A stretch of 45,600 bases of DNA from Gammaproteobacteria bacterium. Its GTDB lineage: Bacteria; Pseudomonadota; Gammaproteobacteria; Steroidobacterales; Rariloculaceae. The stretch's first letter is position 1, and each line of letters begins with the position of its first letter. Shown here one piece after another: positions 8,485 to 41,588 of this stretch. The stretch covers positions 1 to 45,600 of the forward strand of contig CAUZMW010000002.1 in assembly GCA_963581225.1 (NCBI GenBank), written 5' to 3'. Both the position numbers and the translations under genes were made by a program. Below the pieces are notes generated by a model, which saw only the letters and a program-made list of their open reading frames with translations, was not told the DNA's origin and did no database searches.

Positions 8485-9513
8485 TTATCTCTCTACGTAG
8501 CGTTCTACGTTACATTCATATGGTCGGATGACGTCGCCGCGGTCCGAGGCGAAGTAGGTGTTCCAGCTCACGGGTTCGGTCAGTGTCGCCGGGTCCGTTA
8601 TCGTCAATTCGTAATCCAGGCGTCGCCCGCCGTCGGTGACCGTGAAGCGCTCGAATGTCTCGACTCCTTCACTTTGAGCAACTCCGACGCGGTTAAAGTA
8701 TGGATAGTCGATGTCCGTCGTCTCGACGATCAGTGCGCCGTCCTCCCAGCGGCCGACGGAGTAGCCTAACGGTGATGGCACGCGCTCAGCGTTATCGGGA
8801 GTGAGATGAATCGTCCGAACGTTGTCGAACTCCTCCAACCGAAGAATGATCACGTCGTCCTGCTCGCTGAACTGCATCGGATACGGGTTGCCCATCGTCG
8901 GGGGCATGCCGGGAGGTATGCATTGCAGCAACGGATCTTCCGTCTGTGGATCCCAGACAGCGAAGGCGTCACGAGCCGAGTCGGTTAACGGCAGCTCGCG
9001 GTCGAGCGGTACGCGACGACCACCGGCGATCGACCAGGTCTGAAAAAGACCGCCGGTGCCTTCCGATAGATCCGGGGCCGGCGTAGATTCGGCCGGCCGT
9101 GCGGCGCCACCATAGTAGTCGTTCGCCCAGTGTGGCTGACCGTTGCCCGGGCTGACAATGACTTCGGTGCCATTGTCGAGGAGCACGTTCGTCACGCTGA
9201 GTTGCCGCGGCCGCTTCGTCGATCGATTCACGGCGACGGTAACCCGAGCGCCCGCTTGAAAGACATCCCGCGGCACGCCCTTGCGCGCCAGCGTGTTCCA
9301 CGATGCAGCCTCCATCTCCCAGAGTTGCTCGGTACCGTTATCATCGACGGTTTTGAGCGTGAAATTCACGTGCGGGTTGCGCCAGTAAGCGGCGACGATC
9401 TCGCCGTCCATCTCAACTACGTCATCGTCGAATTCTGCTTGCGAATGATGCCCGAGCGCCGGAAACGCCAAGATCAACGTACCGATAAGTGTGGCCAGGC
9501 GAGTTCTCAGCAT
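8485..9513 (-). CDS. Exported two-domain protein: N-terminal 'HHS...WRNPH' (DUF6152-like) domain plus a conserved Cys-bracketed C-terminal domain; function unknown
   Basis: AAGGGA RBS. Signal MLRTRLATLIGTLILAFPALG followed by HHSQAEFD...YWRNPHVNF. The C-terminal region QCIPPGMP..PYPMQF..SVGRWEDG..ERFTVTDGGRRLDYELTITDPATLTEP..PYEC is colinear with residues ~200-345 of the 32782..34950 product. Confidence 0.7.
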   Translation of the reverse strand: MLRTRLATLIGTLILAFPALGHHSQAEFDDDVVEMDGEIVAAYWRNPHVNFTLKTVDDNGTEQLWEMEAASWNTLARKGVPRDVFQAGARVTVAVNRSTKRPRQLSVTNVLLDNGTEVIVSPGNGQPHWANDYYGGAARPAESTPAPDLSEGTGGLFQTWSIAGGRRVPLDRELPLTDSARDAFAVWDPQTEDPLLQCIPPGMPPTMGNPYPMQFSEQDDVIILRLEEFDNVRTIHLTPDNAERVPSPLGYSVGRWEDGALIVETTDIDYPYFNRVGVAQSEGVETFERFTVTDGGRRLDYELTITDPATLTEPVSWNTYFASDRGDVIRPYECNVERYVER

Positions 9514-9539: not shown

Positions 9540-9600
9540 ACGAAGGGGCGTCCCCGTATCTGTAGGCGTCGCGATTCTTCTCCTTGTCTAGACTCGGGCA
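9540..9600. repeat. Degenerate or partial copy of the palindromic element seen at 32644 and 36614
   Basis: GGGGCGTCCCCGTAT (9545-9559) looks like the two element arms collapsed together. CGTCGCGATTCTTC (9567-9580) is identical to 32764-32777. TGTCTAGAC resembles the element loop ATCTAGACAG. Confidence 0.3.
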
Positions 9601-19573: not shown

Positions 19574-19604
19574 AGGACACAAACTACCGACCGACGGAGC
19601 GACG

Positions 19605-19620
19605 GCCCTTTAAGAAGGGC
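19605..19620 (+). terminator. Weak hairpin after tctC
   Basis: GCCCTT-TAAG-AAGGGC (6-bp stem), followed at a short distance by CTTTATT. Poor U-tract. Confidence 0.3.
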
Positions 19621-19665
19621 TCGCCCCCTTTATTCCTCGAAGGCCAGAGTAGAGTTTATAGAGTT

Positions 19666-25344: not shown

Positions 25345-26842
25345 GTGGAAGTCTGGTCGCAGGTTCTAGAACAGCTGCTCTTTATTGCGCAGACCCCGAT
25401 GCTCTGGGTCGCCTGTCTAAGCGGTGTGACACTCGGGATACTCTGGGGGGCGATGCCGGGCCTGTCTACGACAATGGCGATGACGCTGCTCATCGGCCTG
25501 ACCGTGGGTATGTCCCAATCCGTCGCCATCATATTTATGATCGGGGTCTACACCGGTAGTGTGTTCGGCGGCGCGATCTCAGCCGTACTCATCAATATCC
25601 CCGGCACGCCCGACGCCGTGCCGACGATGATCGAGGGCTACGCGCTCGCGAAGCGAGGGCGGACTGGCGCTCGGCACGGCGATCTCAGCTTCGTTTATCG
25701 GCAACTGGGTTGGCATCCTTCTACTCATCGCACTGATACCGGCCGTACTGTTCTTCGCGTTGCAGTTCAGATCCTGGGAGATGTTTCTACTCTCGCTGTG
25801 GGGGATCGCCATCTGTGGTTCGATGTCTTCTATGGAGATGCCGTTAAAGGGATGGATCTCAGGATGGCTCGGTCTCATGGTGTCGTTCGTCGGTCTGGAT
25901 GCCATTCACGGCGTTTCTCGGTTCAGTTTCGGCTCGTACAACCTGGATGACGGAGTAAGTTTTATTCCGGTTCTGATCGGCTTGTTCGGCTTGACCGAGA
26001 TACTTCGAGTACTGCTGCAGAAATCTCCGCCGTCGATCCCGTCGGATGTCGGTCGGGTGCTTCCGTCGCTACGATCTCTGGTCAAGTACATCCGGCCGAG
26101 TTTTAGGTCCGGGATTATCGGTACGGTGATTGGCGCCATCCCGGGTGCCGGAGCAAACGTTGCGTCTTTCTTTTCTTACGATGTCGGCCGGCGGCGCGCC
26201 AGTGCGGAGGAGAAGAAGAAGTGGGGCAAGGGTAGCTACGAGGCGATCGTTTGCGCGGAAGTTGCCAACAATGCCAACGTTGGAGGGTCGATGTTACCGA
26301 CATTGGCATTGGGTATACCGGGCAACGCGGCGGCGGCAGCCATACTGGCCGCGTTAGAGCTGAAGAACGTTGTCGTGGGGCCGTTGATCCAGACAGAGAA
26401 CCCGGGTCTGATTTTCTATATCTATATCGGGCTGATCGTCGCCAATTTCTTCATGTACGCCATGGCCATCGCGTTGATTAAACCGTGTGTAAAATTGTTC
26501 AGCCTCCCCAAGACGCTCCTGATGCCGCTGATTCTGCCGATCTGTGTGATCGGCGCGTTCGCCGTCAATCTGAATTACTTCGACGTCTACGTGATGCTGA
26601 TTTCCGGGTTGATCGGCTACGTACTTCACCGGTTCGGGTTTCCTCTGGCACCGATCGTGCTGGCCGTCATTCTTGGGCCGCTGGCGGACGAGAACCTTCG
26701 GCGTGCACTGCTGGTATTCGAGGATGTCGCTGTGTTGACGATCCTGTGGGAGCGCAAGCTCGGTACGGTACTACTGCTGGTCGTGCTGTACACTTTTTAT
26801 GATGGAATCTTTAAGCGTGGAAAATCGAGAGCTGAAAACTAA
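25345..26842 (+). pseudogene. tctA: tctA interrupted by a +1 frameshift near 25657-25667
   Basis: Frame of 25345 reads a normal TctA N-terminus up to ...MIEGYALAKRG, then turns to junk. The frame of 25760 is open back to the TGA at 25628-25630 and reads GGLALGTGISASFIGNWVGILLLIALIPAVLFFALQF..., colinear with KALEMSLFASAISDFLSDIF... of the intact TctA at 17055. The switch falls at the GGGCGG run. Confidence 0.8.
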
Positions 26843-28306: not shown

Positions 28307-28894
28307 ATGGCTTCGGTCTGGGGAGAGTTAAAGCGACGTAGCGTCGTTAAGGTTGCGGTGGCGTACGCCATTGTCGCCTGGTTGTTGATCCAGATTATCG
28401 TCTCGGTCGAAGGGCCACTAAATCTTCCCGACTGGATCGACACCTTCGTTATCGTGCTGTTGGCGGTCGGCTTTGTCGTCTCATTGATTTCCGCTTGGGC
28501 GTACGAGTTGACTCCAGACGGTGTGAAGCAAGCAAAGTTGCTGCCAGGAAGCGTTACGAGTATGGTCGGGCAGCTTGCGGAGTTCGATCCCGACCAACCG
28601 ATTCAGCTTCGTGGCACGCTGACGAAGATCGAGCTCATCAATTCGCATTCGTGGTTTCACATCGATGTCGTCACGGAAAACGGTGCCATTGAGGCTTGGG
28701 CGATCGAAGCAGGAACACCCAATACGCTGTTCCGTAAGGGCATCAACAAGAACACGCTACCGCTGGGTATAGAGATCATTGTCGACGGTTATCGGGCCAA
28801 GAACGGCACGACCACCGCCAGTGGCCGTGACATCACGTTCTCGGACGGACGGCAGTTGTACTTGGAAGGATCGGCGCCGCCCGCTCCCGAGTAA
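28307..28894 (+). CDS. N-terminally membrane-anchored protein with a C-terminal DUF6152-like domain lacking the His-His start
   Basis: AAGGGGG RBS. N-terminus ELKRRSVVKVAVAYAIVAWLLIQ...LPDWIDTFVIVLLAVGFVVSLISAWAYELTPDG is a two-TM module I recall from many TPR/cyclase proteins. C-terminus LAEFDPDQPIQLRGTLTKIELINSHSWFHIDV...NTLFRKG aligns with the HHS-family domain. Confidence 0.6.
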   Translation: MASVWGELKRRSVVKVAVAYAIVAWLLIQIIVSVEGPLNLPDWIDTFVIVLLAVGFVVSLISAWAYELTPDGVKQAKLLPGSVTSMVGQLAEFDPDQPIQLRGTLTKIELINSHSWFHIDVVTENGAIEAWAIEAGTPNTLFRKGINKNTLPLGIEIIVDGYRAKNGTTTASGRDITFSDGRQLYLEGSAPPAPE

Positions 28895-31846: not shown

Positions 31847-32626
31847 ATGGGTGCCTCCAACGAGGAACACTTCAAGACGCCGACCATGCGCCTGGACGGC
31901 CTTGTGGCCGTTGTCACCGGCGCCGGACGCGGTCTCGGTCGCGCGTGTGCGCTTGCGCTTGCAGAGGCGGGCGCGAGCCCCGTGCTGGTCAGCCGTACCG
32001 AGAGCGAACTTCAAGCCGTCGCCGCGATTATCGCCGCGGACGGAGGCACGGCCTCGACGTTAGTCTGCGATGTCACCGATGTCCGCCAGGTTGAGAGCGC
32101 CATTGGCGGGCTCGAGCGGATCGATATTCTTGTCAATGCCGCCGGCTTCAATATTCCTGAGCCGCTCGACGACGTGACTGAGGAACATTTCGATAAGGTC
32201 ATAACGGTTAACGTCAAGGGCACGTTCATGGTGTCTCAGGCTGCTGTTCGCCGCATGCGGGCTGGTGGCAGTGGCGGGGCGATCATTAACATCTCCTCGC
32301 AGATGGGCCATGTCGGCGCGCCGAATCGAACGGTGTACTGTGCGTCGAAACACGCCGTGGAGGGCATGACGAAAGCCATGGCCGTCGAACTTGCGCCAGA
32401 GAAGATTCGCGTCAACTCGATCGGGCCGACGTTTATCCTCACGCCGCTGACCGAGCCCTTCTTCGAAGATCAGGCGTTCAGAGAGGATACGTTGCGGCGA
32501 ATACCGCGCGGCGAGGTCGGTCAGCCGACGGACGTGATGGGCGCCGTGGTTTTTCTTGCGTCACCGGCGGCGGCCCTGATCACGGGCGCCGCGTTGGTGA
32601 TCGATGGCGGGTGGACCGCCTGGTAA
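31847..32626 (+). CDS. Short-chain dehydrogenase/reductase (SDR)
   Basis: ORF 31442..32626. ATG 31847 lies 8 nt after GGAGG. TGAGRGLG, NAAG and YCASKHAV motifs. Confidence 0.9.
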   Translation: MGASNEEHFKTPTMRLDGLVAVVTGAGRGLGRACALALAEAGASPVLVSRTESELQAVAAIIAADGGTASTLVCDVTDVRQVESAIGGLERIDILVNAAGFNIPEPLDDVTEEHFDKVITVNVKGTFMVSQAAVRRMRAGGSGGAIINISSQMGHVGAPNRTVYCASKHAVEGMTKAMAVELAPEKIRVNSIGPTFILTPLTEPFFEDQAFREDTLRRIPRGEVGQPTDVMGAVVFLASPAAALITGAALVIDGGWTAW

Positions 32627-32643
32627 AGCTCGGATCGCGTCCT

Positions 32644-32762
32644 GGCGGCCGCTCCCACAAATACGGGGACGGTCTACCAAAATATCTATCTAGACAGTTC
32701 AACAGAGTTGGTGAGTTAGGTAGACCGTCCCCGTATTTGTCGTATTTTTGGGAGCGACGGCC
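32644..32762. repeat. Palindromic intergenic element, copy A (REP/MITE-like)
   Basis: Perfect 21-bp arms: CAAATACGGGGACGGTCTACC (32658-32678) and GGTAGACCGTCCCCGTATTTG (32719-32739). The 40-nt loop contains ATCTAGACAGTTC. Outer arms GGCGGCCGCTCCCA (32644-32657) and TGGGAGCGACGGCC (32749-32762) pair at 12/14. Confidence 0.85.
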
Positions 32763-32781
32763 TCGTCGCGATTCTTCGTTT

Positions 32782-34950
32782 CTACGGCGAGTAGTGATCC
32801 ATGGTCGCGCAATCGGTGCAGCGGACGTCTTCGATCGGCCGCCCGTCTACCATGTCGGCGATCCAGTCCCGATACCGCCGTCCGTCGACCTGGTAGCTGT
32901 AAAAGCGGTCGTAGATATAGGGTAGACCCCGATTGCGGTTACCGGTCTGCGGAATGGAGTCGAAATAGCCGAGGCTGATGACGTGTTTGTTGCCGCCGGC
33001 CACGTAAGTACGGTAGTTGTCGACCTGGCTTTTAACATGCTCGTGGCCCGCCTCGACAACATCGAGGATCGGACCGTCCACGCCCAAGTACTCGAGCATC
33101 TCCGAGAACACCATGTCGTGAGCCGTGATCATCTGCGTGAACACGATCTCCGGGTGACGCCGGGCGGCGGCGATCGTGATGTCTTCGAAGCTGAAGTTGT
33201 CCGGGTCGAGTCCCGCGAAGCCTGTGTGTTCGTTCAATAAGTCCACCGTGCCCCAGGCTTCCCGGATCGGTTGTAGGAGTTCGCCGATGAAGAGCGCGCC
33301 GTTACCGTCACCGAGGTGGCGTACGGCGGCATCGGGGTAGTGATCCGCGACGACCGACGCATAGAAGGGCGTACCGTAGCTCCCCGATGTGTGGCCACTG
33401 ATGACGACGGTTTCGGGCGATTCAAAGTTATCGAAAACCCAGTCGAGGACGGTCATTGCATTGCGATAACCGTTGAAATGCAGCGTGTCGCTGATCCGGG
33501 TCTCACCGTTCTCGAGCGGACCGTCGTTCGGACGCACGGCGTCACCGATATGCATGTCGCCTGTGCAGTAACCGACGAGCACCTTGGTGAAATCCTGAAA
33601 CGGGTTCTCGGAATTATCTTCCGCCATAATTCCGGTCGATCCGGCTGGATTGTCTTCGGCTCGTACGGTCTTTGGATTGTCGTCCATGCGGCCGACGGGT
33701 TCGTCGGTACAGGTCAACCCGGACCAACACGCGCCGCCACCGGGGAAACTGATCAGCACCTTGCTCGGGTCGGCCGGACGGGCGAAGAACCCGTATTCCG
33801 TCCCATAGAGACACATCGTATCTTCGCCGGGGCGAATCGTGTTCCAGTCGTCCGAGAGGTCGGCGAAGGCGGGTCGTCCCACGTGATTCGTAGCCGCGGC
33901 TGTCAGCGTGCCGGCCGTCTGCTCGCATTCGTAAGGCGCGACTGTCTCGCCGGGAACCCAGAACCAGTACTTGCTGAAGGTGGTTGGTTCCGTAAACACG
34001 GCGGGATTCGTCATCGTCATCGTGTAGTCGAGGCGCTTGCCGTCTGCGGTCGGCGTAAATCGCTCAACGATTTCGGCACTGGCGGAGTTCGGGACGCCGG
34101 TCATATCGACATACGGCCAGCTGCTGCCCGTTGTTGTCACCACCAGCGTGTCGCCTTCCCAGCGGCCGACGGAGTGGCCCATCAGAGTCGGTTCGCGACC
34201 TGCCGCTGTTGCACCCGGCGTCATGTCGATTTCCCGTACTGCGTCGCCTTCCTCCATTCGCAGCAGGATCGTGTCCCCGTCTTGAACGAGTTCCATCGGA
34301 TAAGGCTGTTCCATGATCGTCGGCATGCCTTTGTGCACGCAGCCTGCCGCCAGGATCGGGTTGCTGTACATGTCATAGCCGGCACGGGTGGTGGTGGCCG
34401 TAGCGGTTAGCGGAAAGTCGTAGCGCTCGAACAGCATCACTTCCGCGGGCCCGAGGCCGAGGCTCGTGCTCCAGACACGAAAGATAGTCGCCTCCTCGCC
34501 GGACGATCCTTCCAGATCGTCCTCTGTCACCAGCCACGCCGAAGCGTCGCCGGCGACATTCTCGCTCCACCGAGGCGGGAGTCCCGGCATGAAGACGATT
34601 TCCTGGCCGTCCTGCATGAGCATGTTGGTTACGAACATCTCATTGCCGCCGCGTTGCGCCGGCCAGCCGGCCACGCTCACGTGATCACCAGGTGATACGG
34701 CGTCCCGCGTCAGGTTCATTCGCCTGAGGATGCTGACCGAGTTCGCTTCGATGTGCCATACGGCCCCGTCGCCGCTACTGGATTCGATCGTAAAAATGAC
34801 ATGAGGGTTTCGCCATTGAACCTCGATAACCTCGCCTTCCGCTTCGACAGTCGTCTCCGGATCGAAGAACAGGAAAGGTGAGTGATGCCCGGCCGCCGTC
34901 AGGCTATAGAGCATCGATGCCGTGATAACAGCAGGTTTCAGCAATGACAC
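32782..34950 (-). CDS. Exported three-part fusion: HHS/WRNPH (DUF6152-like) domain, conserved Cys-bracketed domain, and pectin-acetylesterase-like alpha/beta-hydrolase domain
   Basis: GTG 34950 lies 9 nt after GGGAG. Signal ...SLTAAG, then HHSPFLFFD..VQWRNPHVIF. Residues ~200-345 are paralogous to the 8485..9513 product. Residues ~355-722 carry PAE/Notum-like landmarks: FPGGGACWSGLTC, VGYCTGDMHIGD, LHFNGYRN, VISGHTSGSYG. Confidence 0.7.
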   Translation of the reverse strand: MSLLKPAVITASMLYSLTAAGHHSPFLFFDPETTVEAEGEVIEVQWRNPHVIFTIESSSGDGAVWHIEANSVSILRRMNLTRDAVSPGDHVSVAGWPAQRGGNEMFVTNMLMQDGQEIVFMPGLPPRWSENVAGDASAWLVTEDDLEGSSGEEATIFRVWSTSLGLGPAEVMLFERYDFPLTATATTTRAGYDMYSNPILAAGCVHKGMPTIMEQPYPMELVQDGDTILLRMEEGDAVREIDMTPGATAAGREPTLMGHSVGRWEGDTLVVTTTGSSWPYVDMTGVPNSASAEIVERFTPTADGKRLDYTMTMTNPAVFTEPTTFSKYWFWVPGETVAPYECEQTAGTLTAAATNHVGRPAFADLSDDWNTIRPGEDTMCLYGTEYGFFARPADPSKVLISFPGGGACWSGLTCTDEPVGRMDDNPKTVRAEDNPAGSTGIMAEDNSENPFQDFTKVLVGYCTGDMHIGDAVRPNDGPLENGETRISDTLHFNGYRNAMTVLDWVFDNFESPETVVISGHTSGSYGTPFYASVVADHYPDAAVRHLGDGNGALFIGELLQPIREAWGTVDLLNEHTGFAGLDPDNFSFEDITIAAARRHPEIVFTQMITAHDMVFSEMLEYLGVDGPILDVVEAGHEHVKSQVDNYRTYVAGGNKHVISLGYFDSIPQTGNRNRGLPYIYDRFYSYQVDGRRYRDWIADMVDGRPIEDVRCTDCATMDHYSP

Positions 34951-34971
34951 GTCAATGAACTCCCGATCTGA

Positions 34972-36447
34972 CTATTGTGCCGCCATCTTTAGGCCGGTGA
35001 GCGAGCGCTCACGACCGACCGAACCCTTTAGAGCGAGCTCATAGTTCTGCAGCGCCAGCTCGTTCTTGCCCATCGACAGATAGGTATCTGCTAGCAGTTC
35101 CGCCGTCGGCTGCACAGGCTGAGCGGGGCCGTACTCCGGCGGCACGCTGGCCTCGAGTTGTGCGGCTTCCTCTATCAGAGTGAGCGCGCGGTCGGAATTT
35201 CCTGCCGCCAACTCGATCTGACCTTCGAGTGCCAGGTGCAACAGCCGCGGTACCATCGCGCGACGACTAGCCGTCTGAATGGGTTCGGCGCCGCCGATCG
35301 CCGCCAGCGCTGAGTTGGCGCTATCGGAATCGCCCGCTTTGAGTGCCAGTACTCCCTGAATGTACTGATCCGTCGCGATCGCGTATGGACTCAAGCCGTC
35401 GTAATCGACTTGCACGCTGGCTAATGGGCTGTCCCAGTTACCTGTATCGACGAGATAAGATGCTCGACCTGCGATGAAGTTCTGCCGGTGCGATGCGGCC
35501 GGGTGACGGGTCATCTGGTCCTGAATCAGCGCGACATGCTCGGCTGCTTCCGCGTCCCGGTTCATCTGATTGAGAGCGTAGATCACCCAGGTCAACGCGT
35601 GATAAGCCTGATTCCCATATGGGTCGTTCTTGCTGGGTCGGCGCCCAATGTCCTCTTCGAACGAACGCGCGTTGCGTTCGTATCCGAGCTCCCACATGCC
35701 GAGTGCGAAATAGATATGCGAGCCCATGTGCAGCGCGTGCACGGCCGACGGCGCGACTTCGGCGTACACCTTCGCGGCGCGTAAACCCAACGGCGCGTGG
35801 ATCGGGTCGTCGTAGCTGTGAATGGCGTAATGGAGGGCGCCGGGATGTGTCGGATTGATCGCTAGGACGTCCTCCGCGATCGCGCCGGCGCGCATATAGC
35901 GCGCATAGTCTCGACCGCCATGACTGGTCGTAATCAGGGATAGCGCGTAGAACGCCGCGGCGTCGAGATCGTCCGGATAGGATTCGCGGATCTCCCCGAG
36001 TGCTGCCGAATACAGAAGCTCTCGCTCCTCCTGGCTCCCTTCGCCGAACAGAAGCTCAACCGAGTGTAGGTAGGCTTTCTCGCGATCGGTTGCGAATTTC
36101 GTCGCTCGCTCCTCCGGTGTGTCACCGAGTCTTGCAAGCGCGGCTCTGGAGGCATCGAGACTGTGTTGGCTCCACAGCGAATGTTCATGGGTCAGCGCCT
36201 CGCCCCAGTACGCCATCGCGAAGTCCGGGTCGAGATCCTGTGCTTGAAGAAAGCTGACGCGAGCGTCGTCGTACTCGAAATTATGTAACTGGAGCAATCC
36301 CAGAATGAATACGTCGTACGCTTCCGGGGTTCCGGATGCGGCGAAATCGGTGCTGCCGTAAATCTCCGCATCGCGGCCATCGGCGGCCGAAGCGGTACCG
36401 GTCAGCGATACGCTCAGTATCAGACTCAAGAATAATGCGTTCTTCAT
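34972..36447 (-). CDS. Exported helical-repeat (TPR-like) protein with a conserved His cluster; function unknown
   Basis: Signal MKNALFLSLILSVSLTGTASA. TPR-like helices throughout (e.g. C-terminal AELLADTYLSMGKNELALQNYELALK). His-rich block HPGALHYAIHSYDDPIHA...AVHALHMGSHIYF. Lies 21 nt upstream of the fusion gene. Confidence 0.55.
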   Translation of the reverse strand: MKNALFLSLILSVSLTGTASAADGRDAEIYGSTDFAASGTPEAYDVFILGLLQLHNFEYDDARVSFLQAQDLDPDFAMAYWGEALTHEHSLWSQHSLDASRAALARLGDTPEERATKFATDREKAYLHSVELLFGEGSQEERELLYSAALGEIRESYPDDLDAAAFYALSLITTSHGGRDYARYMRAGAIAEDVLAINPTHPGALHYAIHSYDDPIHAPLGLRAAKVYAEVAPSAVHALHMGSHIYFALGMWELGYERNARSFEEDIGRRPSKNDPYGNQAYHALTWVIYALNQMNRDAEAAEHVALIQDQMTRHPAASHRQNFIAGRASYLVDTGNWDSPLASVQVDYDGLSPYAIATDQYIQGVLALKAGDSDSANSALAAIGGAEPIQTASRRAMVPRLLHLALEGQIELAAGNSDRALTLIEEAAQLEASVPPEYGPAQPVQPTAELLADTYLSMGKNELALQNYELALKGSVGRERSLTGLKMAAQ

Positions 36448-36613
36448 GCTCGATCTCCCAAGAGGCTTGGTTCCTGAATTCCAGTCTGCGGCAACTCGCG
36501 TAAATTTCTGGACCCGCTTACCGGTATTGACCTCGGCCGCATTCAGATTCTGGCCGCTCTGTCGTCGGCGGCTTCGCCTTAATTTACGAGCGATTATACG
36601 CTGGATTCCTACG

Positions 36614-36729
36614 GATACGGGGACGGAATACGGGGGCGGTCTACCTAACTATCTAGACAGTTCCACCGTGAGTTAGGTAGACCGTCCCCGTATTCGAGAA
36701 TATCTGCCACCAATGTTGGAGCGGCCGCC
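36614..36729. repeat. Palindromic intergenic element, copy B (same orientation as copy A)
   Basis: 25-bp arms: GAATACGGGGGCGGTCTACCTAACT (36626-36650) and AGTTAGGTAGACCGTCCCCGTATTC (36671-36695), with one mismatch. The loop ATCTAGACAGTTCCACCGTG is shared with copy A. An extra half-arm ATACGGGGACGG lies at 36614-36625. The flank TTGGAGCGGCCGCC (36716-36729) matches the copy A outer arm. Confidence 0.85.
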
Positions 36730-36738
36730 CTGCCGCGG

Positions 36739-37953
36739 TCAGTTGCCGCGGATGACGACGCTGTCGGCAACCAGCTTGTCGATGTCTGAATCGGCGTAAC
36801 CTAACTCGCGCAGGACCTCCGTCGTGTGTTGTCCTAACGTCGGGGCACCGCGTTCGATGGCCGCGGGAGTTTCGCTGAACTTCACCGGAAAACCGATCGT
36901 CGGCACCGGACCGAGGCGTTGGTGCTCCGTCTCGACCAGCATCTCTCGCGCTTTGGTCTGCGGATCGGCGAGCATCTCGCCGACGCTCAACACCGGGCCG
37001 GCCGGCACGCCTGCCGCGTCGAGTCGCTCCAGCCAATCGTTCGTGCTGCGTTTCTTGAATGCAGGCGCCAGTGCGTCGGCGAGTTCGGCTCGATGTGCCA
37101 TCCGGTCCTCGTTCTGCAGGAATCGGCTATCGGTCAACAGCTCCGGCAGGCCGAGAACATCCGGCAACCGTTGCCAGACGACCTGGCTGGCCGCGCCGAG
37201 AGTCAGCCAGCCGTTCGCGGTCTGAAACGCTTCGTAGGGTGCGTTTAACGGATGGGCCGATCCCATCGGGGTAGGCGATACGCCGGTGGCGAGCGCGATC
37301 GCCGACTGCCAGAAGGTCTGCGTGATACCGGCTTCGAATAGCGAGGTATCGACTCGCTGTCCTCTACCCGTCTTATTGCGTTCGATCGTGGCAGCGAGTA
37401 CCCCCATCGTCGCGAGAAGTCCGGCCGTAATGTCGGTGACCGGCGTGCCGCACTTGACGGGCGGCCGGTCCGGCCCCTCGCCCGTGATACTCATCAGGCC
37501 GCTCATACCCTGCGCGACGAGATCGAAGCCGCCACGATCGGCGTAGGGTCCGGTGCGGCCGAAACCGGAGATCTCGCAGTAGATGAGTCCGGGGTTGCTT
37601 TTACTCAACTCGTCGTAGCCCAGGCCCAGCCGCTCCATCGTGCCCTTGCGGTAGTTTTCGATGACGACGTCGGCTGTCTTCAATAGCCGCTGCACTATCT
37701 CTTTGCCGGCCGGTGCTTTGAGATCGACGGCGATGCCGCGCTTATTGCGATTCAGCATCATGAATGCCGCGGGCTCGCCGTCGACATCGGGCGGGAGAAA
37801 TCCTCGCGCGGCGTCGCCACCCGGGACGCGCTCCACCTTAATCACATCGGCGCCCATGTCGGCGAGCATCCGGCCGCACACGGGGCCGGCCATGATGTGG
37901 GCGAGCTCGACGACGGTCACACCCTTGAGTGGGCCGGGTTGCGTGGTGCTCAT
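36739..37953 (-). CDS. Family III CoA-transferase (CaiB/BaiF)
   Basis: VVELAHIMAGPVCGRMLADMGADVIKVE N-terminal signature. 404 aa. Confidence 0.9.
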   Translation of the reverse strand: MSTTQPGPLKGVTVVELAHIMAGPVCGRMLADMGADVIKVERVPGGDAARGFLPPDVDGEPAAFMMLNRNKRGIAVDLKAPAGKEIVQRLLKTADVVIENYRKGTMERLGLGYDELSKSNPGLIYCEISGFGRTGPYADRGGFDLVAQGMSGLMSITGEGPDRPPVKCGTPVTDITAGLLATMGVLAATIERNKTGRGQRVDTSLFEAGITQTFWQSAIALATGVSPTPMGSAHPLNAPYEAFQTANGWLTLGAASQVVWQRLPDVLGLPELLTDSRFLQNEDRMAHRAELADALAPAFKKRSTNDWLERLDAAGVPAGPVLSVGEMLADPQTKAREMLVETEHQRLGPVPTIGFPVKFSETPAAIERGAPTLGQHTTEVLRELGYADSDIDKLVADSVVIRGN

Positions 37954-38757: not shown

Positions 38758-40041
38758 TCAGCGATAAAACAAATTCACGAGGCTCATCGGAATCGCCGGG
38801 ATATAGGTCACGAGCATAAGCACGGCGAACAATACGGAAACAAAGTAGATATTAACTCTGCTGACCTCCCAGATGTCCGCTTTGGCTACCGAGCAGGCCG
38901 TCACAAGGACGCTCGCGACGGGCGGCGTCTGCTGCCCGATGCCGAGATTCAACGTCACGACGAGACCGAAATGGACGGGATCTATGCCCACCGCGTTGAC
39001 TAATGGCATCACGATAGGCACGACGAGGATGATCGCAGCAGCTGAGTGCAGGAACAGCCCGATGGCGAGGAAGAAGACATTGAGCAGCGCCAGTACGGCC
39101 CAGCGGTTATCGGTGAATTCGACGATTGCCTGGGCGACGCGCTGCGGGACTTGTTGTTCGGTGAGGAACTCGCCCAAGAGAGCGGAGGCGGCCACCAGCA
39201 ACATCACGACCGCGGTCTGTACTGCGCCCTCGATGATCGCCTGGCGGAGTCGTTGCCAGTTCAGTTCCCGGTAGATTACGCCGCCGATGAAGATCGCCGC
39301 GACGACAGCCAGGCCGGCGCCTTCCGTTGCGGTTACCCAACCCGTGAAAATTCCGCCGAGGATGATCACCGGAAGAGACAACGCCCAGATTGCGTCTTTG
39401 AATGTCTCGGCGACGCGTCGTAGTTGAAACGCGGCTTCTACGGGAAAGTCGTGACGAATGGCAATAACGTACGAGGTTCCCATCATCAGCACGCCGCCGA
39501 TGATGCCCGGGATAATTCCGGCGACGAACAATTCAACAACGGAGCTTCCCGACATGACGCCGTACAGAATCATCGGAATCGACGGCGGAATGATGACTGC
39601 GAGCGTGGCGGACGATGAGGTCACGGCTGCCGCGAATGGAGCCGGATATCCTTTGGCCTTCATCTGCGGTATCAAAATCGATCCTAGCGATGCGACATCC
39701 GCGACGGCGGAGCCCGAGATCTCCGCAAAGAACATTGACGCGGCGGTCGTGACCATTGCCAGCCCGCCGCGAACGAATCCGACGAGGGCCGAAGCGAACG
39801 CGATGAGCCGCTGCGAGATACCCGACGAGTTCATGATGGCGCCGGCGAGAATGAACAGTGGGATCGCGATCAACGAGAATTTCGTCGCGCCGGTGAATAG
39901 CACCAGGGCTATATTGGGCAGCGCGTCGATACCGGAGGTCATCAACACGGCGATCACGGTGACGGCCCCCAGCGCGATCGCTATCGGCACGTCGATCGCG
40001 ACCAATAGGATCAGCCCGACGAAGAGCAGCAGCAGAATCAC
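38758..40041 (-). CDS. dctM: TRAP transporter large permease (DctM)
   Basis: 427-aa polytopic protein, DctM-like throughout. Overlaps dctQ by 4 nt. Confidence 0.9.
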   Translation of the reverse strand: MILLLLFVGLILLVAIDVPIAIALGAVTVIAVLMTSGIDALPNIALVLFTGATKFSLIAIPLFILAGAIMNSSGISQRLIAFASALVGFVRGGLAMVTTAASMFFAEISGSAVADVASLGSILIPQMKAKGYPAPFAAAVTSSSATLAVIIPPSIPMILYGVMSGSSVVELFVAGIIPGIIGGVLMMGTSYVIAIRHDFPVEAAFQLRRVAETFKDAIWALSLPVIILGGIFTGWVTATEGAGLAVVAAIFIGGVIYRELNWQRLRQAIIEGAVQTAVVMLLVAASALLGEFLTEQQVPQRVAQAIVEFTDNRWAVLALLNVFFLAIGLFLHSAAAIILVVPIVMPLVNAVGIDPVHFGLVVTLNLGIGQQTPPVASVLVTACSVAKADIWEVSRVNIYFVSVLFAVLMLVTYIPAIPMSLVNLFYR

Positions 40042-40544
40042 TCGAGTTGTCTCCGTGTCGCCTTTTTCAACGCGGGCCAGATCTCAGCGAAGCTCAGAAG
40101 CTCGGCGATGATGAACAGTGCAGCCCCGATCGGAATCACGGACTGGGTGAAACGCACCGAGACGCTGGGCAGGCTGGCCAGGTAGAGACCGTTCAGAACC
40201 AGAAGCACCTGCCAGCCGGCCCAGGCGACCAGGACGAAGAAGCCGACAACGATGATCTCCCGGCAAAGCACGAGGTAGAGCCGCAGCTGAGGTGCCGCGG
40301 AATCGACGAGTTTCGGGAAGCCGATGTGTGCCCGTTTCAACGCCGCAAGTGAAGCGCCATAGTAAGTCAGCCAGGCTAGCAGGATAGACGCGACCTCGTC
40401 GTACCAGACTAGGGCTGCACCGGCTTTACGGAATCCAACGCCTACGATCACGACGACCGCGAGTGACGTCATCAAGAACAGCATGATAATTTCGAGCGAC
40501 TGCTCGAGGCCGTTTCGGTATTTGCCGGTTGCGGGGACGGTCAC
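40038..40544 (-). CDS. dctQ: TRAP transporter small permease (DctQ)
   Basis: 168 aa, four TM segments, lying between dctP and dctM. Confidence 0.8.
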   Translation of the reverse strand: MTVPATGKYRNGLEQSLEIIMLFLMTSLAVVVIVGVGFRKAGAALVWYDEVASILLAWLTYYGASLAALKRAHIGFPKLVDSAAPQLRLYLVLCREIIVVGFFVLVAWAGWQVLLVLNGLYLASLPSVSVRFTQSVIPIGAALFIIAELLSFAEIWPALKKATRRQLE

Positions 40545-40595
40545 GGAACAGCTCGAGAGCAGCCCGCGGCGAATCGAAGATGAGAATTACCCCGT

Positions 40596-41588
40596 TCAGT
40601 CACTGGTCAGACTGAATGCATGTTCCAGAAGCGCCCGCCCGCCCGTTACGGACTTGCCGAATTCGTCGTAGACCGCCTGGCTCACCGCGACAAAGCTCTC
40701 GAGATCAGGCTCGTTCACGACCACATTCGCGTCGACCATCTCCTGAAGAAACTCCGTCTCCATGCGCTCCGCCGTGTCGTAGACGAAGCGTTGTGTCTCA
40801 CGTGCGGTTTCCTCGAGGATTAGTCGGACGTCCTCCGGCAGCCGGCCCCAGCGATCTGCGTTAACCGTCACATAGGCAGGCGAGTAGACGTGACCGGTCA
40901 GCGACAGGTAGGGCTGAATCTCATGAAACCTCGAGCTCACAATCTGCGCCAGCGGATTCTCCTGACCATCCATTACGCCGGTCTGCAATGCGACGAATAC
41001 CTCCGATAACGGCATTGGCGTTGGATTGGCGCCGAACGTCTGAAACATCTTTACGCGCCAGATGCCGCGGGGCGTCCTGAGTTTCACGCCCGCCAGGTCT
41101 TCCGGTGTATCGATCGGACGAATACTATTTGTGACGTGGCGAAAGCCATTTTCCCAGACCGCGATGATGTCATAGCCTTGCTCGGTCACGATCGGTCGCA
41201 ACGTAGGCCACAGGATTTCCTCCTCGATCCTGCCCATGTGTTCACGATCCTCGACGAGATAGGGCATCTCGAACAGGCCGAACTCCGCGAACGTCGATGA
41301 CATGATGGTTGAAGGCAACGCGAAGTCGACGGTGCCGAGCCGCAGCTTCTGCAGAAGCACCTCGTCGCTGCCCAGTTGGCTCGCGCCGAATACGACCACC
41401 GTGGCGCGTTCGCCAAGCCGCTCATTCGCCAGCCGCGCGAATTCCTCGGCGGAGGCCGCGTACAGGGAACCAGGGGCGCCGACATGCCCGAACTTCAGCT
41501 CCAGCGGTCTGCCGGACTCGTCGGCACAGCCCGCGATTGCCGCGAGGGCGACCAATAAACTCAACGACGACCGAGTGTTGCGTGTCAT
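40596..41588 (-). CDS. dctP: TRAP transporter substrate-binding lipoprotein (DctP family)
   Basis: Lipobox LAAIAGC. The DctP pattern LKFGHVGAPGSLY...VKLRTP...QTGVMDGQENPL is typical. Confidence 0.85.
   Translation of the reverse strand: MTRNTRSSLSLLVALAAIAGCADESGRPLELKFGHVGAPGSLYAASAEEFARLANERLGERATVVVFGASQLGSDEVLLQKLRLGTVDFALPSTIMSSTFAEFGLFEMPYLVEDREHMGRIEEEILWPTLRPIVTEQGYDIIAVWENGFRHVTNSIRPIDTPEDLAGVKLRTPRGIWRVKMFQTFGANPTPMPLSEVFVALQTGVMDGQENPLAQIVSSRFHEIQPYLSLTGHVYSPAYVTVNADRWGRLPEDVRLILEETARETQRFVYDTAERMETEFLQEMVDANVVVNEPDLESFVAVSQAVYDEFGKSVTGGRALLEHAFSLTSD

Follow-up and report, generated by a model that had tools for sequence, protein, structure and literature searches.

The two copies of a palindromic element that lie on either side of a gene pair in the window (the whole stretch of DNA that was analysed, 45,600 nucleotides) are quite probably BIME-like mosaics, made of two unrelated kinds of palindromic repeat that have gathered behind genes in this lineage. 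The first kind would be a classical REP unit, and the second a long-stem hairpin. The latter is a new repeat family, distinct from the classical REP units beside it, with no match in Rfam, in plasmid or phage collections, or in the searchable literature.

Structure of the mosaics at the two sites

The preliminary description had reported two similar copies in the same orientation. Indeed, both contain a hairpin with 25-bp arms and the core AATACGGGG[A/G]CGGTCTACC, and each also has the loop ATCTAGACAGTTC...GTGAGTTA and, on the right, the T(G/T)GGAGCG motif. A stretch of 27 nt (GTGAGTTAGGTAGACCGTCCCCGTATT) is identical between copies A and B. The 18-mer GGTAGACCGTCCCCGTAT, searched with at most 3 mismatches, occurs five times in the window, always at these two sites, and 0 times in shuffled sequence. 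The right arm had been placed 43 nt (A) or 44 nt (B) from a minus-strand stop codon; the 19-nt right arms extend to 32737 and 36694 and the stop codons are at 32782 and 36739, so that the distance is 44 nt in both cases. Only the 491-aa TPR-like gene and the 722-aa fusion gene lie between the copies, and a Pfam scan of the large ORFs across the window finds no transposase or integrase near them, as had been noted.

Mosaic A extends from 32634 to 32772 in the order REP(-), hairpin, REP(+), and folds as a single 139-nt hairpin (-78 kcal/mol, z about -10) in which the left REP base-pairs with the right-hand one. The left REP, which the preliminary description had not set apart from the shared motif, is a separate unit (nhmmer with the REP profile, E=1e-4). 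The two arms of hairpin A (25 nt each, 96% complementary) match the arm HMM with E=2.5e-10 and 1.7e-8; the loop is 34 nt long, of the class 'CTAGACAGTTCAACAG..GTGAG', and the single-stranded DNA fold reaches -27.3 kcal/mol (z -8.2). In the right REP, a GC stem of 6 bp (GCGACG/CGTCGC) precedes GATTCTTCGT; this REP folds as a unit at -7.7 kcal/mol, and it is terminator-like on the + strand in a terminator scan. The SDR gene, whose 259-aa call was taken from the sister contig L022, has its stop codon at 32624-32626, and mosaic A starts 7 nt beyond; the SDR gene and the TPR/esterase pair, which are convergent, both end at this mosaic.

Mosaic B spans 36615-36738, or starts at 36608 if a CCTAC head is counted. 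The extra left arm is a partial match to the arm HMM (36609-36626, E=0.047), and the same half-arm arrangement is found in L008, L032, L054 and L057. Hairpin B has arms of 25 nt, also 96% complementary, and a 20-nt loop that agrees with that of hairpin A in class and orientation; its single-stranded fold is -25.7 kcal/mol (z -8.6). In sister strains the REP of B reads TGTAGGAGCGG, which has the canonical GTAG head (strain variant T36717A in L022, L023 and L024). Mosaic B follows the 3' end of the CoA-transferase III gene, the last of a TRAP/ECH/CoA-transferase unit, and closes that unit.

Table. Repeat elements and neighbouring genes in the window
Feature	Positions	Strand	Remarks
Probable relic: half arm, GTAG head and REP tail GGGGCGTCCCCGTATCTGTAGGCGTCGCGATTCTTC	9549..9583	-	Divergent intergenic region; degenerate and weak (arm HMM, E=0.071)
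SDR gene	31847..32626	+	Pfam adh_short_C2, E=1.8e-62; convergent with the 722-aa gene
REP unit, Y-like variant	32634..32659	-	Minus-strand reading TGTGGGAGCGGCCGCCAGGACGCGAT; head adjoins hairpin A
Long-stem hairpin A	32657..32740	.	Arms 32657-32681 and 32716-32740; core AATACGGGGACGGTCTACC
REP unit, Z-like variant	32747..32772	+	TTTGGGAGCGACGGCCTCGTCGCGAT; REP profile, E=1.5e-5
DUF6152 + pectin-acetylesterase (PAE)-like fusion, 722 aa	32782..34950	-	3' end faces mosaic A
TPR-like protein, 491 aa	34972..36447	-	Signal-peptide-like N-terminus; first gene of the bracketed pair
Truncated extra left arm CCTACGGATACGGGGACGG	36608..36626	+	Directly 5' of hairpin B
Long-stem hairpin B	36626..36695	.	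Arms 36626-36650 and 36671-36695
REP unit TGTTGGAGCGGCCGCCCTGCCGCGG	36714..36738	+	E=0.0047; ends at the CoA-transferase stop codon
CoA-transferase III gene	36739..37953	-	Pfam PF02515, E=4.5e-134

Two kinds of repeat and their distribution

The outer motif, GT(G/A)GGAGCG...CGCGAT, is a classical REP unit in two sequence variants. It consists of a GT(G/A)G head, a 6-bp GC palindrome, which folds as a 6-bp stem, and a CGCGAT tail; head and tail match those of the Pseudomonas REP classes PF8/PF13 (PMC3686654). REP units also occur without the hairpin, for instance as a head-to-head doublet (L053:2096-2164). Ten of the 17 REP matches lie at most 20 nt from a hairpin arm, and approximately three quarters of the hairpins have no adjoining REP.

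The exact-arm scan of metagenome contigs gave 46 loci, three of which are chance matches in coding or AT-rich DNA; all the genuine ones are intergenic, and most loci carry both arms, 9-47 nt apart. There are 35 distinct flank/loop sequences and 34 distinct rows in alignment A1. These 34 loci may derive from several related genomes, so the copy number, about 1 per 30-100 kb per genome, is an estimate. The contigs concerned have a G+C content of 0.57-0.61, compared to 0.59 in the window. The host is a deep-sea gammaproteobacterium.

The 19-bp core arm, with the consensus CCTACA-AATACGGGGACGGTCTACC-TAACT, is almost invariant (its columns are identical in 68-70 of 70 arms), while the centre of the hairpin is hypervariable in length (9-89 nt over the family) and in sequence. 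At least three sub-families can be distinguished, and the same loop is found at unrelated loci, at least 16 for the 36-nt loop class and at least six for the AT-rich class. The stem positions that flank the core vary but keep their base pairing: complementarity at outer positions 1-5 is found in 31, 27, 22, 20 and 18 of 35 loci, against 16.6, 14, 12.6, 10.7 and 12.6 with shuffled partners, and the covariation score is 0.182, a value that 0 of 500 shuffles reach, compared to 0.085 when shuffled and 0.04-0.06 when slid. The complementary outer flanks could instead result from insertion into pre-existing palindromes. Nested or truncated arms are seen in B, L008, L027, L032, L054, L057 and L063, and several copies (L033, L040) form a perfect palindrome around TCTAGA, as if two terminal repeats had been joined end to end. 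In an orthologous pair (L046/L050, 92-95% identity) the arms are kept and the palindromic centre is rebuilt. MAGs of Acidobacteriota contain one decaying copy at orthologous sites and a solo arm at another locus, which hints at horizontal spread of the hairpin.

The hairpins sit at the 3' ends of genes, almost exclusively where transcription units end. Based on crude gene calls for the metagenome loci (longest ORF weighted by GC3), the convergent, tandem and divergent junctions number 19, 10 and 1, compared to 30, 140 and 35 in the background; the enrichment at convergent junctions has a Fisher odds ratio of 10 (p=5e-8). The gap between hairpin and stop codon is typically 4-40 nt, and some genes even obtain their stop codon from the element. 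The canonical REP outer motif and these dispersed intergenic hairpins support the reading as a REP/BIME-like 3' element, one of those considered initially.

The gene pair between the mosaics

Another of the initial readings took the two copies as recombination or insertion boundaries of a mobile cassette made of the TPR and esterase genes, and it is true that copies in the same orientation exactly flank two genes for exported proteins. This reading is refuted, and we give it practically no chance. The nucleotide identity of syntenic relatives is about 75-82%; in L072 (approximately 75%) synteny extends over about 23 kb. The order of the window is conserved for CoA-transferase, TPR and PAE in L072 and L075, and for TPR, PAE and SDR in L072 and L078. 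Around the genes the neighbours are the same, and neither the arm HMM nor the REP profile detects an arm or a REP at these junctions in L072, L075 and L078. The relatives also have much less sequence between the genes: where the window has 155 nt at site A, L072 has 5 nt and L078 has 57 nt, and at site B the 291 nt of the window compare with 105 nt in L072. There is no G+C step at the boundaries, and the Pfam scan of the large ORFs of the window shows no integrase or recombinase. Copy B lies 179 nt from the TPR start and 3' of the upstream operon, therefore it belongs to the 3' end of the neighbour. Elsewhere the family is dispersed at single sites, mostly one per contig.

The preliminary description had named two findings that would weigh against its readings. 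The element is not unique to the two sites, since dispersed copies exist, and relatives do have the cassette without the elements; together this argues for a repeat family and not for a mobile boundary. The TPR/esterase pair is an ordinary, vertically inherited chromosome segment.

Origin and possible function of the hairpin

The hairpin would behave as REPINs and MITEs do, as a mobile palindrome that is not autonomous. This proposal is based on the many scattered loci, the lack of target duplication, the orthologous sites that are empty in relatives, the frequent nesting in or beside REPs and its own truncated copies, and the survival almost solely at the ends of transcription units. Regarding target-site duplication, there is no direct-repeat signal at any offset beyond that of the palindromic dinucleotides themselves. 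It may be that a single-strand (HUH/RAYT-like) transposase, encoded elsewhere in the genome and acting in trans, recognises the invariant arms; the chances of this seem to us about even. The suggested search for RAYT/TnpA-REP genes was carried out by tblastn in about 670 kb: the E. coli RAYT, whose sequence was checked against PDB 4ER8, gave nothing, nor did an IS200 TnpA query. Since no transposase of any kind was found, the mobilising enzyme is something that we purely infer.

The mosaics resemble the REP/BIME of Gammaproteobacteria (E. coli Y/Z; Pseudomonas PF8/PF13, GTGGGAGCGAGCTTGCTCGCGAT) by the GT(G/A)G head, the GC-rich imperfect palindrome and the CGCGAT tail, by two REP variants in opposite orientation around another conserved motif, and by their extragenic position 3' of genes. 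They differ in that the palindromic core, GCGACG-GCCT-CGTCGC or GCGGCC-GCCTG-GCCGCG, is lineage-specific, the inter-REP motif is a 70-84-bp hairpin with a distribution of its own, and the tblastn of about 670 kb found no cognate RAYT. Like REPINs (Bertels & Rainey 2011, PMC3116915), the hairpin has two inverted arms that are highly conserved around a spacer that is less so, a long predicted fold, compensatory stem changes, extragenic dispersal, no target-site duplication, and solo arms that look like decayed remnants. On the other hand, its arm is not a REP and lacks a 5' GTAG guide where a REP would have one, and its spacer varies in length. A single arm folds at -0.8 kcal/mol (z +0.7) and thus has no internal palindrome; since the arms are not small palindromes, the hairpin is, strictly speaking, no REPIN-like doublet of REPs. 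The family also occurs in two phyla, unlike REPIN-RAYT systems, which are described as mostly vertically inherited (10.1101/2022.05.22.493013).

MITEs such as Correia/NEMIS, ERIC and pneumococcal SPRITE (PMC10969869) share with the hairpin a size below 500 bp, inverted terminal arms of about 25 bp, the absence of coding sequence, hairpins that are stable as RNA, a tendency to cluster with other repeat families and to insert into them, and a proposed role as terminator or RNase target. The hairpin differs by the absence of flanking direct repeats and of a known related IS, and by GC-rich arms in place of an AT-rich element. Correia elements lie mainly immediately upstream of genes, where their own promoters can act (PMC10969869), while the hairpins are found almost solely at 3' ends. 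The MITE reading, also considered initially, is supported in part: the element is short, non-coding and dispersed, with inverted arms, but no target duplication is detectable and no autonomous parent was found. An origin of the hairpin as a classical MITE derived from an IS, in particular, is unlikely; such an element would be mobilised by a cut-and-paste DDE transposase such as an IS630/Tc1-like enzyme, its true ends would be CGGGGACGG...CCGTCCCCG, and the flanking TA would be the duplicated target in a preferred AT-rich palindrome, ACAAA-TA-TTTGT. The inverted arms of 19-25 bp and the TCTAGA-centred palindromes would fit, and the occurrence in two phyla is more in keeping with IS families that move horizontally than with RAYT systems. 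TA stands directly outside CGGGG/CCCCG in every copy, so that its duplication is indistinguishable from a conserved arm; however, the AATA/TATT positions vary no more than the core does, and a mere target preference would not be so strict. Moreover, the direct-repeat signal is absent, no locus has an arm pair around a long coding insert, and neither the tblastn of about 670 kb nor the Pfam scan of the window revealed a transposase.

Less probable still are non-mobile sites selected by the host, either bidirectional terminators or paired protein-binding sites on DNA or RNA, whose identity would be held by selection and which would spread slowly by recombination. The extreme conservation of the 19-bp core next to a freely varying centre, the restriction to gene 3' ends, above all of convergent pairs, and the symmetry of the A-rich and U-rich flanks about the GC-rich stem are in line with such sites. 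However, a common loop at many unrelated loci means that whole elements were copied and did not evolve in place, relatives at 75-82% identity do without hairpins at the same junctions, and the nested or truncated copies and element-supplied stop codons resemble insertion events. Integron attC-like sites or pairs of DNA-uptake sequences are hardly credible. The attC core consensus is RYYYAAC / GTTRRRY, which the inner stem ACCTAAC...GTTAGGT fits, but these heptamers adjoin the loop and not the outer ends, and there is no array and, in the Pfam scan of the large ORFs of the window, no intI. Inverted pairs of uptake sequences behind genes have a precedent in Neisseria; uptake signals, however, also occur inside genes and are roughly 10-12 nt long, while the genuine metagenome matches are all intergenic and the conserved motif is at least 19 nt.

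The transcribed 25-30-bp stem may serve as a bidirectional terminator or a 3'-end stabiliser, a role that we would neither favour nor discount. Whichever direction is transcribed, the RNA has ACAAAUA 5' of the stem and UAUUUGU 3' of it. The stem is much longer and the loop larger than those of canonical intrinsic terminators, and the terminator scan did not flag the long-stem hairpin. The elements are ordinary selfish or regulatory hairpin repeats, and not the markers of a mobile cassette.

Hairpins and REP units at the two sites

The two palindromic sites of the window that bracket the genes of a TPR-like and of a 722-aa protein (copies A and B) are mosaics of two separate repeats: a REP variant that had not been listed before, and a long-stem hairpin that represents a new family of repeats. 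Both belong to an uncultured gammaproteobacterial lineage of the deep sea. Direct reading of 32560–32860 and 36400–36820 bears out the preliminary description as regards the presence of two near-perfect hairpins, the layout of the surrounding genes and the loops, which both carry ATCTAGACAGTTC...GTGAGTTA in the same orientation. The 19-nt right arm of either hairpin ends 44 nt ahead of a minus-strand stop codon. A 27-nt block common to the two copies is 100% identical, and the 18-mer GGTAGACCGTCCCCGTAT, when up to three mismatches are allowed, has five matches in the window, every one at these two sites, and none in shuffled sequence. The convergent SDR and esterase genes are 155 nt apart, a gap that copy A fills, and copy B lies 3′ of the CoA-transferase gene, 179 nt upstream of the start of the TPR-like gene.

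Coordinates of hairpin arms, REP units and neighboring genes at copies A and B (PAE, pectin-acetylesterase-like)
Feature	Position	Strand	Remark
SDR gene	ends 32626	plus
Left inverted REP relative, copy A	32634–32659		ATCGCGTCCTGGCGGCCGCTCCCACA
Hairpin A, arms	32657–32681 / 32716–32740		25 nt each, 96% complementary
Right REP, copy A	32750–32772		GGGAGCGACGGCCTCGTCGCGAT
DUF6152+PAE gene, 722 aa	32782–34950	minus	signal-peptide-like start
TPR-like gene, 491 aa	34972–36447	minus	signal-peptide-like start
Truncated extra left arm, copy B	36608–36626		CCTACGGATACGGGGACGG; followed by the hairpin, then by one REP
Hairpin B, arms	36626–36650 / 36671–36695		25 nt each, 96% complementary
REP, copy B	36714–36738		right unit only
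Family-III CoA-transferase gene	36739–37953	minus	ECH and TRAP transporter genes come next

The motif T(G/T)GGAGCG(A/G)C(G/C)GCC, which had been ascribed to the palindromic element, is indeed present at both copies; it belongs to a separate REP repeat and not to the hairpin. REPs are defined by a GTAG or GTGG tetranucleotide at the foot of a hairpin (PMC3479197; PMC3686654 Table 1). Such a 5′ head is found in TGTGGGAGCG and TGTAGGAGCG, which occur in the window and in four related contigs (L032, L038, L047 and L053); position 36717 is a T in the window (GTTG head) and an A in the sister strains, which gives GTAG. An imperfect GC-rich palindrome of ~20–40 nt is present as well: GCGACG-GCCT-CGTCGC folds at −7.7 kcal/mol and the stem is flagged in the scan. 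The Pseudomonas REP classes include PF8, GTGGGAGCGAGCTTGCTCGCGAT, and PF13, GTGGGAGCGGGCTTGCCCGCGAT (PMC3686654 Table 1). The outer motif of the window has the same GT(G/A)G head and CGCGAT tail as these classical REPs, with a 6-bp GC palindrome, and by these sequence-level tests it qualifies as a REP.

A REP profile finds 17 matches with E<0.01 across 446 kb (the window and related contigs), and none in the syntenic relatives L072, L075 and L078. REP units are found in related contigs (TGTAGGAGCGACGGCCTCGTCGCGAT at L032:1543 and TGTGGGAGCGACCGCCTGGTCGCGAT at L038:1021, for instance), at times far from any hairpin, and at L053:2096–2164 both variants are arranged head-to-head, 17 nt apart, without a hairpin. 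Of the 17 matches, ten are no farther than 20 nt from a hairpin arm, and a REP adjoins about one hairpin in four. When GTAG adjoins a hairpin arm, it is part of the flanking REP or of the outer flank.

BIMEs combine REP variants in alternating orientation with other conserved motifs between them. Copy A consists of REP (−) at 32634–32659, the hairpin, and REP (+) at 32747–32772; by this descriptive test it is a BIME-like arrangement. The RNA fold that had been suggested for this site yields, from either strand, a single 139-nt hairpin (about −78 kcal/mol, z about −10), and one arm by itself, CCTACAAATACGGGGACGGTCTACCTAACT, shows no folding (−0.8 kcal/mol, z +0.68). The hairpin is at times nested in its own truncated copies: the half-arm and full-arm layout of copy B recurs in L008, L032, L054 and L057, and arms are nested in L027, L054 and L063.

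Elsewhere in the window, the divergent intergenic/promoter region at 9549–9583 contains GGGGCGTCCCCGTATCTGTAGGCGTCGCGATTCTTC, which resembles half an arm, a GTAG head and a REP tail in succession and is probably a decayed mosaic. At the convergent junction between the genes of TctC and a 2-hydroxyacid dehydrogenase (19574–19665), GGAGCGACGGCCCTTTAAGAAGGGCTCGCC has a REP-like head and an enlarged hairpin, and is possibly a further REP variant.

Dispersal, conservation and position of the long hairpin

Searching for the core pattern beyond the window, in metagenomes, shows that the arms are dispersed and not unique to the two sites, in line with the repeat family proposed beforehand. The exact-arm scan with AATACGGGGNCGGTCTACC gives 46 loci, and most of the genuine ones have both arms, 9–47 nt apart; three of the 46 are chance matches in coding or AT-rich DNA. 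Merging the same locus from several samples leaves 35 distinct flank/loop sequences and 34 distinct rows in the alignment of the family. The G+C content of these contigs is 0.57–0.61 (0.59 for the window), several of them share the REP variants of the window and none overlaps with it; we take them to belong to the same or sister lineages. Among the GTDB representative genomes, 21 single hits are obtained, below the ~70 expected by chance (a rough estimate for 17 specified bases and ~1.2e12 positions), and only L008 and L009 are genuine members, so the expanded lineage is absent from the representatives.

The elements measure 47–85 bp (127 bp in L009), with arms of 19–25 bp. The arm consensus is CCTACA-AATACGGGGACGGTCTACC-TAACT, and the core columns are identical in 68–70 of 70 arms. 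The centers, between the arms, fall into at least three classes: a 36-nt center, TAACTATCTAGACAGTTCAACAGGGTTCGTGAGTTA, which includes both copies of the window; an AT-rich center that prolongs the stem, TAAATAAAAA-nnnnnn-TTTTTATTTA; and short centers, or perfect palindromes around TCTAGA. Within one class, the loops differ by 15–30% and the arms by ~1%, which indicates that the arms are under a sequence-specific constraint that goes beyond pairing alone. Around the solo arms, the only distant partner arm is a decayed one, in L053.

The stem extends both outside and inside the invariant core, with bases that vary and complementarity that is kept. Outer positions 1 to 5 are complementary in 31, 27, 22, 20 and 18 of 35 sequences (16.6, 14, 12.6, 10.7 and 12.6 with shuffled partners). 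The covariation score of the fixed-length alignment is 0.182, a value reached by none of 500 shuffles (mean 0.085); slid registers give 0.04–0.06. Double changes are seen at eight variable stem positions, in 4–14 sequences per pair. L046:9519–9578 and L050:3888–3959 are the same locus in two strains, with flanks 92–95% identical and the arms kept; their centers differ and yet both are palindromic (TAATAAAACGTACCTTTTATTA vs TAATAAAAGGTCCCTTTATTGGGACCTTTTATTA, respectively), which shows that the center was rebuilt while remaining self-complementary.

The hairpin is a non-coding palindrome that has been copied to dispersed loci and is limited to gene 3′ ends. Genes were called in a simple way, from long ORFs with GC3 weighting, and the calls of the window were curated; on this basis 30 elements could be classified, 19 at convergent, 10 at tandem and one at divergent junctions; the element-free junctions of the same loci are 30 convergent, 140 tandem and 35 divergent (Fisher odds ratio 10 for convergent enrichment, p=5e-8). 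The distance from element to stop codon is usually 4–40 nt, and the solo arms of L042, L053, L058, L061 and L069 are also directly behind stop codons. The element itself makes the upstream stop codon at L033:3134 and L048:1460 (TA|A at the junction), and at L063:4595 the upstream gene extends 26 nt into the hairpin arm; some genes have thus had their 3′ ends remodelled by insertions.

In either direction, the RNA of the element reads ACAAAUA, a GC-rich stem of 16–20 bp, the center, the stem again and UAUUUGU. This layout makes it plausible that the element terminates transcripts in both directions, or protects their 3′ ends, where genes converge. A canonical intrinsic terminator has a GC stem of 5–14 bp, a loop of 3–8 nt and a U-tract; the long hairpins exceed these dimensions by a wide margin, with stems of 25–30 bp and loops of 9–47 nt (34 nt in copy A, 20 nt in copy B), and their tail reads UAUUUGU. 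They were not called in a terminator scan, in which the sole element flagged was the right-hand REP of copy A. Terminator-like action of the long hairpin is possible.

The family also occurs outside Gammaproteobacteria, considering the loci L008, L009 and L079. L009:1895–2021 is a complete hairpin with an 89-nt center, between convergent genes; for the gene upstream of it, a 93% orthologue is present in MAGs of Acidobacteriota, in one case on a contig of 558,593 bp. At the orthologous site in GCA_964611105.1 (L079:7874–8007), the element is kept and decaying, two uncompensated substitutions having turned its left arm into AATAGGGGGACGGTTTACC. At another locus, on an Acidobacteriota MAG contig, L008:2043–2077 consists of a solo arm and a half-arm duplication. 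Wrong binning of the L009 contig (9.4 kb) would not by itself account for this, since the orthologue is also present on an NCBI contig of 63 kb that bears the label Acidobacteriota. The family is thus present in Acidobacteriota MAGs as rare relics and has expanded in the gammaproteobacterial lineage, which suggests that horizontal transfer took place at some point.

Gene order in relatives

That copies A and B are the boundaries of a mobile two-gene cassette, a reading considered in the preliminary description, is refuted by synteny: L072, L075 and L078 keep the gene order without any arm or REP. L072 aligns with ~22.5–45.6 kb of the window at 73–79% nucleotide identity, in the order aminotransferase, ECH, CoA-transferase, 491-aa TPR-like protein, PAE, SDR (−) and cyclase, and the gene order of L075 and L078 agrees over the genes covered. 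Since the genes are in the same place in the relatives, the TPR-like and esterase genes are ancestral at this position. The junction that corresponds to copy B is 105 nt long in L072, and that of copy A 5 nt in L072 and 57 nt in L078. The mosaics were gained in the lineage of the window or, less parsimoniously, lost in all three relatives. The G+C and skew profile of 28–41 kb has no step at either copy. In the four near-identical strain contigs (L022–L025), the elements are unchanged apart from 2–3 point changes around copy B, to which L023 adds a 1-nt deletion. A spacing of 4 kb between two copies is what would be expected of repeats that mark where transcription units end. The tempting annotation as a mobile cassette is thereby removed: in metagenome contigs, identical palindromes on either side of genes can be no more than two members of a 3′-end repeat family.

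The 722-aa protein (32782–34950) is a lineage-specific fusion whose N-terminal ~310 aa are the DUF6152 part. It has a 99% match labelled Gammaproteobacteria, and its matches at 65–85% are PAE-only proteins of ~410 aa, one of them labelled Candidatus Rariloculaceae; PAE-only proteins of ~410 aa are also found at this position in the relatives (L072:10001–11242; L075:10001–12742), L075 having a separate 474-aa DUF6152 gene after PAE. The window contains three DUF6152 genes in 45 kb (8485–9513, 28307–28894 and 32782–34950), together with several TRAP and Tct tripartite transporters and GFO/IDH/MocA oxidoreductases, and DUF6152 seems to have expanded and become linked to uptake systems in this lineage. 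The TRAP genes DctP, DctQ and DctM, between aminotransferase and ECH at 38758–41588, are missing at the corresponding place in L072 (5205–7184). TctA is split into two overlapping ORFs in the window (25345–25950 and 25760–26842, Pfam positions 3–88 and 121–423) and is an intact protein of 500 aa in the sister contig L023; the split stems from a frameshift, marks a pseudogene or is due to faulty assembly.

Relation to known elements and possible mode of spread

The long hairpin is an extragenic palindromic repeat, an element of a known kind, that has no match in Rfam (the whole window at gathering score, and 32400–36900 at E≤1), in plasmids (blastn of mosaic A), in viral contigs (exact-arm scan) or in the searchable literature (full-text search for the arm sequence). 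A tRNA/tmRNA scan was also negative. The hairpin works like a REPIN or a MITE, yet lacks one defining feature of each. Like a REPIN, it forms a hairpin, with arms more conserved than the spacer and compensatory changes; however, the arms of a REPIN are two inverted REPs, each a small palindrome with a GTAG head, and those of the long hairpin are not REPs. Like a MITE, it is shorter than 500 bp, has terminal inverted repeats in the range of ~4–30 bp and no ORF; however, young MITE copies have direct-repeat target duplications, for which no enrichment was found here at offsets −4 to +10 (k=2–5), except for palindromic dinucleotides. It may be that a TA duplication is hidden within the conserved AATA/TATT. 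Integron attC sites have R″/R′ core sites at their outer ends and form arrays beside intI/attI, whereas the RYYYAAC/GTTRRRY-like heptamers of the hairpin are loop-proximal and the hairpins are single and dispersed, with no integrase in the window. On geometry and context, attC sites, uptake signals, protelomerase sites and Tn3-type repeats (GGGG-ended inverted repeats with a 5-bp duplication) were rejected.

In agreement with the earlier remark that no transposase or integrase is nearby, the large ORFs scanned across the window are only metabolic and transport genes, and no Y1_Tnp Pfam match was found in it. REPs and REPINs go with a cognate RAYT (TnpA-REP) gene in the same genome, which the repeats flank; in ~670 kb, tblastn searches that used an IS200 TnpA sequence and the E. 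coli RAYT, a sequence identical to PDB 4ER8_A, returned noise only. MITEs, in turn, go with an autonomous IS that has the same terminal repeats; among the loci obtained by exact-arm matching, none has an arm pair separated by more than 200 nt. Whole elements of one loop class are found at many unrelated loci, which argues that the hairpin itself is the replicating unit. The invariant arm beside a free center would be recognized by a protein acting in trans, and single-strand HUH chemistry (IS200/RAYT-type) would fit better than DDE cut-and-paste, because there is no duplication, the hairpin is obligatory and GTAG heads are nearby.

A more speculative proposal, which we consider improbable, is that the family is a new class of horizontally transmissible single-stranded DNA hairpin, the invariant 19-bp arms of which would be read by a HUH-type, perhaps RAYT-related, enzyme. 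The hairpin would insert preferentially at GTAG heads, whether of single REPs or of REP doublets, and bring a ready-made symmetric terminator to convergent gene pairs. If this is true, the hairpin would be a parasite of the REP/BIME system, and the relics in Acidobacteriota and the expansion in a Rariloculales-like gammaproteobacterium would record a transfer across phyla followed by a burst. The conserved 19-bp arm is a precise handle for finding the cognate protein. REPIN-RAYT systems are reported to be mostly inherited vertically (10.1101/2022.05.22.493013), whereas the hairpin family is found in two phyla, so that its spread offers a test of always-vertical inheritance for such elements. 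Last, if the hairpins terminate or stabilize transcripts in both directions, they would shape the operon boundaries of this lineage.
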